From positions 1 to 60,995 of IMG/VR virus record IMGVR_UViG_3300025891_000004: DNA of 60,995 nucleotides; one strand, 5' to 3'. This document shows positions 32,829-34,681 of this stretch, piece by piece (within the stretch, counting starts at the first letter, position 1; the number at the start of each line of letters is the position of its first letter). The stretch is from a virus. Lineage: Duplodnaviria; Caudoviricetes. The notes beneath the pieces are model-generated. The model had not been told where the DNA came from. It was given only the letters and a program-made list of their open reading frames with translations, and did not search any database. The position numbers were made by a program, and so were the translations under genes.

Positions 32829-32857
32829 TTGACAACCAAACCGTGAGCGACTAGACT
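32829..32857 (+). promoter_or_regulatory. Sigma-A promoter of the RNA cluster
   Basis: TTGACA-N17-TAGACT; the -10 box lies inside the inverted repeat GTGAGCGA / TTGCTCAC. Confidence 0.75.
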
Positions 32858-32927
32858 TGCTCACATGGGGCTTGCACTGGTGACGGTGTAGGGGTAACGA
32901 GCAACCGGGCTTCCCTCCGGCCTCCCC

Positions 32928-32944
32928 CTCTTTGACAACTGAAT
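32928..32944 (+). promoter_or_regulatory. rrn-type boxA antitermination-like motif
   Basis: CTCTTTGACAACTGAAT resembles the rRNA-leader boxA (GYTCTTTRANAA...) and lies about 65 nt after the predicted transcription start. Confidence 0.55.
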
Positions 32945-32945
32945 C

Positions 32946-33093
32946 TGTGGAGGTCGCTGTTCGGTATAAGGGCATGTCCCTAGAGGCGCGGCGACGGTCA
33001 GACAGTAAAAGGAATGCGGTACCTGAAAGCATCCCAGGAACTGACACTTGACTGCGACTTAAGAACGAGGCGTCGCTACACGCCTACTCCACA
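32946..33093 (+). ncRNA. Unnamed multi-stem RNA (~150 nt)
   Basis: Closed by TGTGGAG/CTCCACA; arms GTCGCTG/CGGCGAC, GTCA..GGAATGC/GCATCC..TGAC and AGGCGT/ACGCCT. Confidence 0.5.
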
Positions 33094-33223
33094 ACACGGT
33101 AAGAGATCGGGCCTGTTCACTAATTGCACCCGGTTTCGGATAGTACGGACTTGGGAAGGGCAGATACAAGACCAAGTTTGAGCCAACCTGGCGAAACGGC
33201 AGATGGTGTGTTACAATGTTCCT

Positions 33224-33643
33224 ATGGCTTACACGGAGGAACAACGTAACTATCACCGGGCGTATTACCATATTCGCCGGAAGAAGTTAACAGACTATCT
33301 CGGTGGGGTCTGCGTGATCTGTGGTATGAACGAAAACCTGCACTTCGACCACGTAGACCCGGCCAAGAAGTCCTTTGAAATCAAGAGCAACTTAACGCTG
33401 AACGATATAGTCAAAGCGGAGTTGGACAAGTGTCAGTTGTTATGCGAGTATCACCACAAACAGAAGACATCACAAGAGAATAGCGGTTTTACTCACGGTA
33501 GTATGTATGCGTGGATGAAAAAGAAGTGCCCGTGCCCCGTGTGCAATCAAGCCAAGTGGCTTTGGAACGACAAACGGAACGTGACTCGTCGTAAAGGGTC
33601 AGGGTACAACGTATTGTATCGCCGGAATGGAGAAACTAGGTAA
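33224..33643 (+). CDS. HNH homing endonuclease with C-terminal HG-CxCxxC module, overlapping tRNA-Leu
   Basis: YLGGVCVICG...LHFDHVDP..KSF.I...ELDKCQLLC..HH; leaderless TG-T-TACAAT-N6-ATG at 33224. Confidence 0.85.
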   Translation: MAYTEEQRNYHRAYYHIRRKKLTDYLGGVCVICGMNENLHFDHVDPAKKSFEIKSNLTLNDIVKAELDKCQLLCEYHHKQKTSQENSGFTHGSMYAWMKKKCPCPVCNQAKWLWNDKRNVTRRKGSGYNVLYRRNGETR

Positions 33644-33703
33644 ACTCAGTTGTCTCAAAAGCAACCGCCGCAAGGCTTGCGGGTTCGACTCCCGCTTTCG
33701 GCA
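33621..33703 (+). tRNA. tRNA-Leu (CAA)
   Basis: Acceptor GCCGGAA/TTTCGGC; anticodon stem GTTGT/GCAAC with loop CTCAAAA; long variable arm; GCGGG-TTCGACT-CCCGC; CCA not encoded. Confidence 0.92.
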
Positions 33704-33804
33704 CGCCAGGTATGAGACCAGTTCAGTAGCCGGGGTCCGTTGGGCTACAGGGTAACCTTCTCAAATCCTAATCCGCTGGCAGACCGGGAGATAGTCTGCT
33801 TTAT

Positions 33805-33879
33805 TGCTCAGTAACTCAATGGCAGAGTGTCCGCCTGTTAAGCGGAAAGTTGAAGGTCCGAATCCTTCTTGAGCAGCCA
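33805..33879 (+). tRNA. tRNA-Asn (GTT)
   Basis: TGCTCAG/TTGAGCA-G-CCA; TCCGC-CTGTTAA-GCGGA; variant T-loop TCCGAAT. Confidence 0.92.
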
Positions 33880-33884
33880 CGGAC

Positions 33885-34027
33885 GCAACCCGATTTAGTC
33901 ACGGGCCAAGAATCTGGCGAGAAACGGAGCCGTGAGGAGACTCGCACAGCATGTCCTAGTGGGATGATCGAGTGACTCTCGGCACCACTGCTCTTTATGG
34001 CCCAAGGAAGGGATACCAAGGGTCGCA
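33885..34027 (+). ncRNA. Unnamed structured RNA between tRNA-Asn and tRNA-Met
   Basis: Several hairpins; loop AGTCA (33897-33901) complementary to loop TGACT (33973-33977). Confidence 0.45.
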
Positions 34028-34028
34028 T

Positions 34029-34103
34029 TGCCCGGTAGGGGAGTTCGGAGTCCCCGCCTGTTTCATATGCAGGAGATCGTGGGTTCGAATCCCACCTGGG
34101 CTA
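34029..34103 (+). tRNA. tRNA-Met (CAT); fMet / Met / Ile2 identity unresolved
   Basis: TGCCCGG/CTGGGCT with a 1:72 mismatch; GGGG/CCCC D-stem; CCTGT-TTCATAT-GCAGG; GTGGG-TTCGAAT-CCCAC. Confidence 0.88.
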
Positions 34104-34169
34104 CAACGCAGACGGTTCGATTCCGTATAGCAGAGAGGAACACTCTGTGAGGGTGGCGATCAGCGGTAC

Positions 34170-34250
34170 GGGGATGAGATAGTTTCGACGAGATGACGAC
34201 GGCCCTACAGGGCACCATCTTGGACGTGGGGGCAGAACCCACCATCTCCA
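34170..34250 (+). ncRNA. Mini-tmRNA: tRNA-like domain (TLD) only, no mRNA-like domain
   Basis: GGGGATG/CATCTCC-A acceptor with G3:U70 and A73; stemless D-loop ...GTTTCGAC; P2 CGAGATG/CATCTTG; GAC linker; T-arm GTGGG-GGCAGAA-CCCAC. Confidence 0.8.
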
Positions 34251-34255
34251 CAGGA

Positions 34256-34348
34256 CTCCGAGAACCGTGCCAGGGAAGAACGGAGGGTGATAGGGTTACC
34301 GCCAAGGAAACCTAGTCGAGTTGGGGAAGTGTGGCACCTAAACCCAAC
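34256..34348 (+). ncRNA. Unnamed three-hairpin RNA
   Basis: Stems CTCCG/CGGAG, TAGGGTT/AACCTA and GTTGGG/CCCAAC; loop GTGCCA complementary to loop TGGCAC. Confidence 0.5.
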
Positions 34349-34354
34349 GGGCGA

Positions 34355-34425
34355 TGGATAGTAACTCAATTGGCAGAGTCCCATGAAAATGGGCATGTGC
34401 GGGTCCGAATCCCGTCTATCCACCA
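34355..34425 (+). tRNA. Atypical tRNA-like RNA with collapsed anticodon arm (CCCAT-GAAA-ATGGG)
   Basis: TGGATAG/CTATCCA-CCA; D-arm ACTC/GAGT; T-arm GCGGG-TCCGAAT-CCCGT; anticodon region 4 nt shorter than in tRNA-Asn. Confidence 0.75.
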
Positions 34426-34645
34426 GTCGTGTACTTCATCGTAGACGCCAGACTGAATAAAATGGCGAGGAACGGTCGGCTTGATATCCGTATAAAGGTG
34501 TCCGAGCGCGGTGCTCGTGATATGCCGATGGTAAAGGGACGGTCCAACCATCCGTCCGGGTTTGATCGCGGCCCCGCTTATAAGGGGTGGGCGAATCGGT
34601 TGGTTGCCGAAGGGTTCGGTTCCCTCAAACTCACAAAATCGACAA
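34426..34645 (+). ncRNA. Unnamed multi-hairpin RNA (~220 nt)
   Basis: Stems CGCCA/TGGCG, TCGGC/GCCGA, GGACGG/CCGTCC and GTTTGA/TCAAAC; loop CAACCA complementary to loop TGGTTG. Confidence 0.5.
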
Positions 34646-34681
34646 TTTAAAGGCATTTAAAATAGAGAGGAGCCACTCAAC

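Follow-up and report, generated by a model that had tools for sequence, protein, structure and literature searches.

The 60,995-bp IMG/VR virus record IMGVR_UViG_3300025891_000004 of a soil phage (analysed over its whole length, hereafter the window) carries at positions 32829-34681, directly upstream of its primase gene, an array that contains transfer RNA (tRNA) genes together with other structured RNAs. In our reading this stretch is very probably a tRNA array of exchangeable modules read as a single transcript, with the sequence between the modules being filler; the decoy and SmpB-related functions discussed below are inferred. Three modules differ from canonical tRNAs: RNA-1, which is apparently an undescribed RNA family; a tRNA-like domain of the transfer-messenger RNA (tmRNA) type that has no tag; and a tRNA body without an anticodon arm. 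The features on which this reading is built are the following:

32829..32857, + strand: sigma-70-type promoter TTGACA-N17-TAGACT (motif match; one of eight copies on the same strand)
32944..33098, + strand: RNA-1, a structured RNA of ~150 nt (132.8 bits with its own covariance model; folding z -2.77)
33621..33704, + strand: tRNA-Leu(CAA) (ARAGORN; Rfam 50.4 bits)
33805..33879, + strand: tRNA-Asn(GUU) (ARAGORN; Rfam 63.9 bits)
34029..34104, + strand: tRNA-Met(CAU), with pair 1-72 mismatched (ARAGORN; Rfam 50.8 bits)
34170..34250, + strand: tmRNA tRNA-like domain without tag (minimum-energy fold; 66.4 bits with covariance model R2; folding z -2.41)
34355..34424, + strand: anticodon-less tRNA body (Rfam tRNA match at 34355-34423, 36.6 bits, gathering score 29; folding z -2.36)

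The first sign of RNA-1 came from a sensitive blastn comparison, in which positions 32948-33115 aligned with Stenotrophomonas virus Jojan60 just past the last tRNA of that phage (68% identity over 173 nt, E 2e-12); the RNA-1 sequences of both phages share a common multi-branch fold. Its invariant 16-mer is present in 26 IMG/VR stretches, 17 of which contain the extended motif, and a 22-letter pattern retrieved six stretches from bacterial genomes, all but one being family members (two Microbacterium, Brevibacterium, Leucobacter and one Solirubrobacterales metagenome-assembled genome). Among the collected loci the RNA-1 covariance model gives 24 matches at 45-142 bits, with a single copy in this phage. 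Full-length RNA-1 was found, at 67-112 bits, in the three cultured phages tested (Arthrobacter phage Teacup, Rhodococcus phage ReT1v-1 and Microbacterium phage DizzyRudy), where it lies in unannotated gaps. The 3′ part of RNA-1 matches 31 cultured-phage records, corresponding to 26 Arthrobacter, 2 Rhodococcus, 2 Microbacterium and 1 Stenotrophomonas phages. RNA-1 is widespread in phages of Actinobacteria and Stenotrophomonas, unannotated in those 31 records and once annotated as a protein: the Jojan60 GenBank entry 'hypothetical protein' UPU15879.1 (6759-6899) coincides in part with the 3′ half of RNA-1 and is probably a false gene call. RNA-1 does not belong to the host core genes: among 151 genomes of one actinobacterial family it was found in a single one, the seed genome itself.

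RNA-1 comprises three helices, P1 (9 bp, joining both ends), P2 and P3, and in addition a small hairpin (P3a), an arm that varies among members and a 3′ hairpin that does not (P5). From a plain alignment made with MAFFT, RNAalifold predicts 25 pairs, with compensatory changes in 13 of them. For the five-helix structure (P1, P2, P3, P3a and P5), 94.8% of the cells are paired among 21 sequences, compared with 35-52% in slid controls; double changes occur in 15 of its 28 pairs, and none of 500 shuffles reached the covariation score. Helix P3 was outside the model that produced the alignment. An alternative extension of P2, which is also supported by compensatory changes, shares 5′ bases with P3 (about 32959-32965 in the window): in alignment A5, columns 18-22 pair either with 49-53 or with 145-151. 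The two pairings may reflect a switch or a triple correlation, or else be an artefact of the alignment. As G·U pairs are frequent, RNA-1 is assigned to the tRNA strand.

RNA-1 is encoded among tRNA genes and on the same strand. The distance to the adjoining tRNAs is 0-7 nt in Jojan60, in the 33-tRNA array of a 104-kb IMG/VR phage (L032) and in loci L036, L044/L053, L030 and L043, and RNA-1 often fills a tRNA slot exactly, as an extra unit of the array. In other loci it is solitary, in many cases no more than 1 kb from a genome end and with HNH and terminase genes downstream; it is located at 326-489 in Teacup and at 2879-3042 in ReT1v-1. In cultured actinophages (Teacup, ReT1v-1, Kumotta, Elesar) the unannotated gaps that contain RNA-1 are about 0.5-2 kb from the genome end. 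The role of RNA-1 may be tied to packaging or to genome ends. A scan of 3.5 kb against Rfam 15 gave no match to RNA-1 at E<=1, a scan of 181 nt at E<=10 gave only a spurious 10-bit match, and a literature search with RNA-1 sequence strings gave no match. RNA-1 may be among the about 8,500 unnamed candidate RNAs that have been reported from IMG/VR (PMC10690425). Annotations of phage tRNA arrays usually show tRNAs and empty gaps; here, one of the gaps holds a well-supported RNA family.

The unit at 34170-34250 is a homologue of the tag-less tRNA-like domain of mycobacteriophage DS6A. Its acceptor is formed by GGGGAUG (34170-34176) and CAUCUCC (34243-34249), includes the alanine identity pair G3·U70 and is followed by the discriminator A34250. 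The acceptor encloses the D-loop analogue UUUCGACG, a 6-bp P2 with a small 4-bp hairpin, the sequence GGAC and then the T-arm, and the minimum-energy fold corresponds exactly to the standard-order tRNA-like domain. The mRNA-like domain, resume codon, tag frame and pseudoknots are absent, with only ~31 nt between the D-loop analogue and GGAC. ARAGORN, with which tmRNAs have been detected in about 2.3% of phage genomes (PMC9004378), makes no tmRNA call here even at -ps80, and the Rfam tmRNA models remain below their gathering scores (tmRNA_permuted, 18.2 vs 47 bits; alpha_tmRNA, 13-17 vs 50 bits). A permuted (alpha-type) tmRNA at 34216-34305 was also considered and was beaten by the standard-order domain, which is 7/7 paired and matches the family.

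A gapped pattern retrieved 18 IMG/VR stretches, two-thirds of which (12/18) are tag-less domains of 76-110 nt ending in ..CUCCACCA or ..CUCCAC. The covariance model R2, built from nine sequences without DS6A, found four loci outside its training: Jojan60 (6867-6961, 67.2 bits), the related phage L004 (4306-4400, 54.8 bits), DS6A (28474-28569, 43.7 bits) and the L032 array (40.9 bits). Both in Jojan60 and in L004 the unit is placed directly before the primase gene, as it is in this phage. The alignment comprises 14 sequences from 13 loci, near-duplicate loci being additional; 97.6% of its cells are paired and double changes are present in 13 of 18 pairs. All 14 aligned members keep G3·U70. The UUCGACG-type D-loop analogue and the GGAC before the T-arm are both present here and in most of the 14 members, having been demanded in the pattern scan (12 loci) and not for Jojan60, L004, DS6A and L032; the exceptions are DS6A, which reads GGUCGAC and GGCAC, and L004 and L032, which read GGAA. 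The tag-less tmRNA domain is hence a recurrent and positionally conserved phage gene.

Some further observations were made on these loci. The IMG/VR contig L070 has two diverged copies of the tmRNA-like unit, at 1553-1642 and 5100-5187 (72.5 and 88.5 bits). The DS6A copy (L076, 28474-28569) is unannotated in GenBank and lies between gp33 and gp34. The L032 array (1768-5703) contains 33 tRNAs, or 36 at a relaxed threshold; RNA-1 (2705-2862) and the tmRNA-like unit (3402-3496) occupy tRNA-sized slots in it, and a 507-nt gap without an assigned unit lies at 4277-4783. RNA-1 and the tmRNA-like unit occur together in only three of the loci examined: no tmRNA-like match was obtained in 23 further loci, 20 of which are RNA-1 loci, and no RNA-1 match in 14 tmRNA-like or DS6A loci.

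The third unit, at 34355-34424, keeps the acceptor, the D-arm and the T-arm of a tRNA intact, and a hairpin of 14-15 nt (CCCAU-GAAA-AUGGG) replaces the 17-nt anticodon arm. The 5-bp anticodon stem and 7-nt loop are lacking, and the Rfam alignment deletes the loop. ARAGORN misses the unit with default settings and reports it at -ps90 as one of six calls genome-wide. In sibling strains, two substitutions in the stem of the hairpin keep the pairing by means of wobble pairs (among the 40 differences listed out of 160). A pattern scan of IMG/VR for anticodon-less tRNAs gave no relatives. The unit may be either a mimic or a decaying gene. An initial annotation of the stretch, made from the sequence alone, had placed tRNA mimics in the array; two elements, the tag-less tmRNA domain and the anticodon-less body, are of this kind.

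Taking these units together, we propose the following scheme. The promoter at 32829 would drive one transcript, without a predicted terminator, into the primase gene; its modules would be, in order, RNA-1, the HNH gene described below, tRNA-Leu, tRNA-Asn, tRNA-Met, the tmRNA-like domain and the anticodon-less tRNA body. RNase P, acting at the 5′ ends, and 3′ trimming would free each module as a separate stable RNA; this release is proposed because the units end in an acceptor-like helix formed from their own two ends and lie flush with tRNAs. Sibling strains trade the modules as cassettes. Since G3·U70 and the SmpB-facing domain have been kept and the message is gone, SmpB is the most likely binding partner of the tmRNA-like unit, perhaps along with AlaRS and EF-Tu, and such binding would damp or divert host trans-translation. 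A similar molecule has been described as strongly inhibiting tmRNA, perhaps by titrating SmpB (PMC4131195, citing Mao et al., 2009). Titration of SmpB would be the best-grounded part of the decoy idea, by analogy with that molecule, and, if true, phages may tune or block host ribosome rescue by means of an SmpB-titrating RNA. In RNA-1 the junction and the 3′ hairpin are invariant and the peripheral helices vary freely; this RNA most likely serves to bind a ligand or a protein. That the array RNAs act as decoys or against host defences is, in general, an inference. A more ambitious version would have RNA-1 as a decoy or aptamer processed by the host that forms, along with the tmRNA-like unit and the tRNA body, a cassette set directed against translation surveillance and tRNA-targeting immunity; in that case, RNA-1 would switch functionally between P3 and the P2 extension, two covarying pairings that exclude each other. 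We regard this version as unlikely.

The exchange of modules was analyzed by comparing the stretch with contigs of four metagenome runs, from soil and permafrost. All four runs retain the promoter region (32749-32870). In a 10-kb sibling contig from run X8 (junction 32950->33089), 48 other letters replace the 138-nt interior of RNA-1 while the outer bases of its closing helix P1 remain; the 48-letter insert may represent another small cassette set in that frame. In contigs from three runs, the region with HNH and tRNA-Leu is replaced by 531 letters. One sibling contig skips from 34025 to 34668, hence lacking tRNA-Met, the tmRNA-like unit and the tRNA body, and another one skips from 34172 to 34419. 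As units are swapped, gained and lost between siblings, we consider the slot to be a site of cassette exchange. The remaining features of the array and of its borders are listed below:

32234..32743, + strand: upstream open reading frame (ORF), in the position of the SSB gene of Arthrobacter phage Molivia and itself without a family match
32927..32938, + strand: boxA-like CCTCTTTGACAA (2/12 mismatches to the consensus; chance-level match)
33182..33206, + strand: stranded tRNA 5′ fragment at the upstream edge of the HNH insertion (sequence reading and short local alignment)
33224..33643, + strand: HNH homing-type endonuclease gene (ORF open from 33203; 3′ end overlapping tRNA-Leu)
34112..34126, + strand: orphan T-arm, ACGG-TTCGATT-CCGT (sequence reading; outside every tRNA call)
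34555..34636, + strand: weak tRNA-like candidate, unsupported (ARAGORN at -ps80 only)
34682..36871, + strand: DNA primase (DUF3987) gene, directly downstream of the array (ribosome-binding site GAGGAG at 34667-34672)

The HNH gene matches phrog_4234 (E 1e-31, residues 7-130 aligned). The fragment upstream of it, 33182-33206, aligns locally with the 5′ part of tRNA-Leu (TGGCGAAAC vs TGGAGAAAC). A sibling contig from run X3 joins 33181 to 33621, so that precisely the fragment and the HNH gene (33182-33620) are gone, and for this reason we regard the HNH gene as mobile and as having inserted at the border of tRNA-Leu. The fragment and the orphan T-arm read as tRNA debris. The weak candidate at 34555-34636 was rejected: it is called only at -ps80, a setting that yields 51 calls genome-wide, and not at -ps85 or -ps90; it has no Rfam tRNA match at E<=1 and its folding z is about 0.

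Several points weigh against our interpretation of the array. The copy of the tmRNA-like unit in the window has a non-canonical T-loop, GGCAGAA, compared with UUCGAUU-type loops in the other 13 of the 14 members, lacks GG in its D-loop analogue and may be a decaying copy. Selection for a GNRA tetraloop in the hairpin of the tRNA body was considered and discarded, since the sibling change A34388G, at the fourth base of the loop, breaks the GNRA motif. RNA-1 shows no conserved discriminator-CCA, and no protein family is common to more than 5 of the 21 RNA-1 loci, which therefore have no constant protein neighbour. The RNA-1 seeds were gathered by means of the invariant 16-mer, so that the invariance of the 3′ hairpin is partly a matter of ascertainment, and alignments A5 (RNA-1) and A8 were fitted to models, with P3 of RNA-1 not included in the model. 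The array units are dispensable in sibling strains. Finally, none of the sequencing runs listed with this DNA is of RNA, so that transcription, processing and stability are predicted.

Some of these points would also be expected if the interval were a graveyard, in which every unit besides the three tRNAs is a decaying tRNA or tmRNA gene, or junk from HNH rearrangements, without function in this phage. The tRNA debris at 34112-34126 and 33182-33206, the unusual T-loop of the tmRNA-like unit, the missing anticodon loop of the tRNA body and the gain and loss of cassettes among siblings are all consistent with such a scenario. It has to be confronted, however, with the fact that RNA-1 and the tag-less domain have been kept, with compensatory changes, among phages whose primases are only 41-48% identical and far beyond them, that the tmRNA-like unit is found in the same position in this phage, Jojan60 and L004, and that RNA-1, the tmRNA-like unit and the tRNA body have folding scores as good as those of true tRNAs. 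We therefore find the graveyard scenario doubtful, and retain the array of exchangeable modules.

With respect to its setting, the array occupies the interval between the gene in the SSB position and the primase gene, which is the tRNA slot of this phage lineage. Jojan60, the nearest named phage (41% primase identity), has four tRNAs in the corresponding interval and Molivia has two, with odd anticodon loops; as both of them also carry tRNAs there, the interval can be regarded as a conserved tRNA slot of the phage group. Primase identity is 48% for L004 and reaches 55-65% for closer relatives. A scan of IMG/VR with the primase alone gave no relatives, nor did a scan with the SSB-position protein, and an alignment search with the primase gave one IMG/VR locus and 18 metagenome loci, of which few include upstream DNA. 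The two tRNAs in the SSB-primase slot of Molivia (L003, 5606-5759) have anticodon loops of 8 nt (ccaa) and 6 nt (ga), and one of them is annotated as 'tRNA-OTHER'. The tRNAs of Jojan60 (L002, 6165-6680) are annotated on the strand opposite to that given by ARAGORN and by the gene order.

The genome also encodes an RNA ligase and a polynucleotide kinase, 8-10 kb from the array. The ligase (phrog_968) is split, with profile residues 3-240 at 22035-22862 and residues 273-398 at 23262-23825. Between its halves, ORF 22823-23335 encodes, by its PHROGs match, an HNH endonuclease (phrog_5046, E 1.6e-19) and not one of the LAGLIDADG type. The kinase gene is at 24382-25299 (PHROGs). In Molivia, the same pair of genes is located upstream of the same slot.

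The initial annotation had combined these elements in a different manner, as a dedicated rrn-like, antiterminated operon that delivers at least five decoy RNAs and forms, with the RNA ligase and the kinase, one translation-protection system. Several of its components are real. The TTGACA-N17-TAGACT promoter is present at 32829-32857 and belongs to a promoter type of the phage itself: TTGACA-N16-18-TANNNT occurs eight times in the genome (0.94 expected; 0/100 shuffles reach 8), with all eight copies on the + strand within 19497-32857. The eight-copy set, with its perfect TTGACA -35 and TANNNT -10 elements, looks like early or middle promoters for host sigma-70. The units would be co-transcribed from the 32829 copy. 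Also real are the three non-tRNA RNAs and the ligase and kinase genes at 22-25 kb, with the same pair upstream of the slot in Molivia.

The leader and the closed operon did not hold up. As in rrn leaders recognised by NusB and NusE, a boxA-resembling stretch (11-12 nt) sits 70 nt downstream of the promoter; unlike in those leaders, the match is no better than chance, since boxA-like words number 2 in the genome compared with 2.65 expected and 73/100 shuffles do as well, and the sequences upstream of RNA-1 in other loci do not share it. No + strand terminator-like site was found in 32000-35500. As there is no such terminator and a primase ribosome-binding site follows the last unit, the array is to be seen as a leader of the replication genes, which reads into the primase gene, and not as a dedicated operon. 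The tRNA-punctuated polycistron is accordingly retained as regards its promoter and the alternation of tRNAs with three structured RNAs, and not as regards its boxA leader and its closure.

Nor do the spacers behave as described. Seven segments, adding up to 842 nt, are left unexplained (32858-32943, 33099-33181, 33705-33804, 33880-34028, 34105-34169, 34253-34354 and 34425-34681). Given their exact boundaries, the six validated RNAs have folding z values of -2.2 to -2.8. Sixteen spacer windows of 65-80 nt over the 842 nt have a mean z of -0.40 (-1.56 to +0.56), similar to that of 33 windows of a coding control (mean -0.52; Mann-Whitney p 0.45), and whole spacers range from -1.0 to +0.6. Hence, instead of dense stems in nearly every spacer, as had been claimed, the spacers fold like coding DNA. 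In practice this provides a filter: when exact boundaries are used, real array RNAs have z values of about -2.5, which filler does not reach. Searches with blastn and nhmmer over 76 loci (642 kb) found no relatives of the spacers, only tRNAs and RNA-1 being matched, and BLAST of the spacers against five whole records found none either. We take the 842 nt for tRNA debris and lineage-specific filler and not for RNA genes, a view drawn from an absence of matches in a set that lacks close relatives. Conservation and covariation, which the initial annotation had put forward as the check on its spacers, thus hold for RNA-1 and the tmRNA-like unit, and the other 842 nt are without relatives; the five or more unnamed RNAs come down to one unnamed family, RNA-1, and two mimics of tRNA or tmRNA.

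As to the system as a whole, both the ligase (22035-23825) and the kinase (24382-25299) are encoded, and their only link to the array is the shared genome. RNA-1 and the tmRNA-like unit share only three loci, and no protein family recurs in more than 5 of the 21 RNA-1 loci. In view of this, of the chance-level boxA, of the lack of a terminator before the primase gene and of the spacers, the antiterminated operon appears rather improbable, and the array of exchangeable modules that reads into the primase gene remains our preferred reading.

The HNH gene is, as initially annotated, the only credible ORF, being the sole one in 32858-34681 with family support. That the RNA-1 stretch or other spacers encode small proteins, as the Jojan60 coding sequence UPU15879.1 overlapping the RNA-1 match and the ORFs at 33014-33181 and 34429-34650 might suggest, is highly improbable: the six other small ORFs have no PHROG match and the 73-aa ORF has no Pfam match, the conserved 30 nt are invariant at all codon positions with flanking helices that covary, G·U included, and RNA-1 lies flush between tRNAs with no room for an ORF.

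The array can be compared with several known systems. Homing endonuclease genes occur inside phage tRNA clusters, as is the case of T4 segB. The HNH gene resembles segB-type endonucleases in being a free-standing gene that borders a tRNA gene and that some sibling genomes have and others lack; it differs in that the enzyme is of the HNH type and in that part of the tRNA 5′ end is duplicated in the insertion. T4 RNAC and RNAD are located in the T4 tRNA cluster and are processed with the tRNAs. They have been referred to as 'RNAs of yet unknown functions' (PMC9697503). RNA-1 would be, like them, a non-tRNA stable RNA of unknown function among phage tRNA genes; it differs in being present in phages of Actinobacteria and Stenotrophomonas and in being also found solitary near genome ends. 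GOLLD and ROOL often adjoin phage tRNAs. Both are large ornate RNAs with Rfam families of their own (PMC12286853). They share with RNA-1 the condition of structured RNAs of unknown function carried by phages beside tRNAs, but at ~600-800 nt they are far larger, and RNA-1 has no match to any Rfam family.

For the tmRNA-like unit, the closest known case is 'Mycobacterium phage DS6A (TLD only)', so listed by Hudson, Lau and Williams (2014; PMC4131195), where TLD stands for tRNA-like domain. Both molecules are phage-encoded and of ~80-95 nt, with an acceptor including G3·U70, a UUCGACG-type D-loop analogue, a short P2 and a T-arm, and neither of them has a message or pseudoknots. They differ in the non-canonical T-loop of the copy in the window and in that the unit belongs here to a recurrent, covarying family with a fixed position before the primase gene in three related phages. 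Some copies of the family sit, moreover, inside tRNA arrays, while PMC4131195, in the excerpt considered here, names DS6A only. Non-tRNA RNAs in phage tRNA clusters are, in conclusion, an already known kind, represented by T4 RNAC and RNAD, by GOLLD and ROOL and by the DS6A domain; within it, the tmRNA-like unit is of a type known from one published example, which proves here to be recurrent and positionally conserved.

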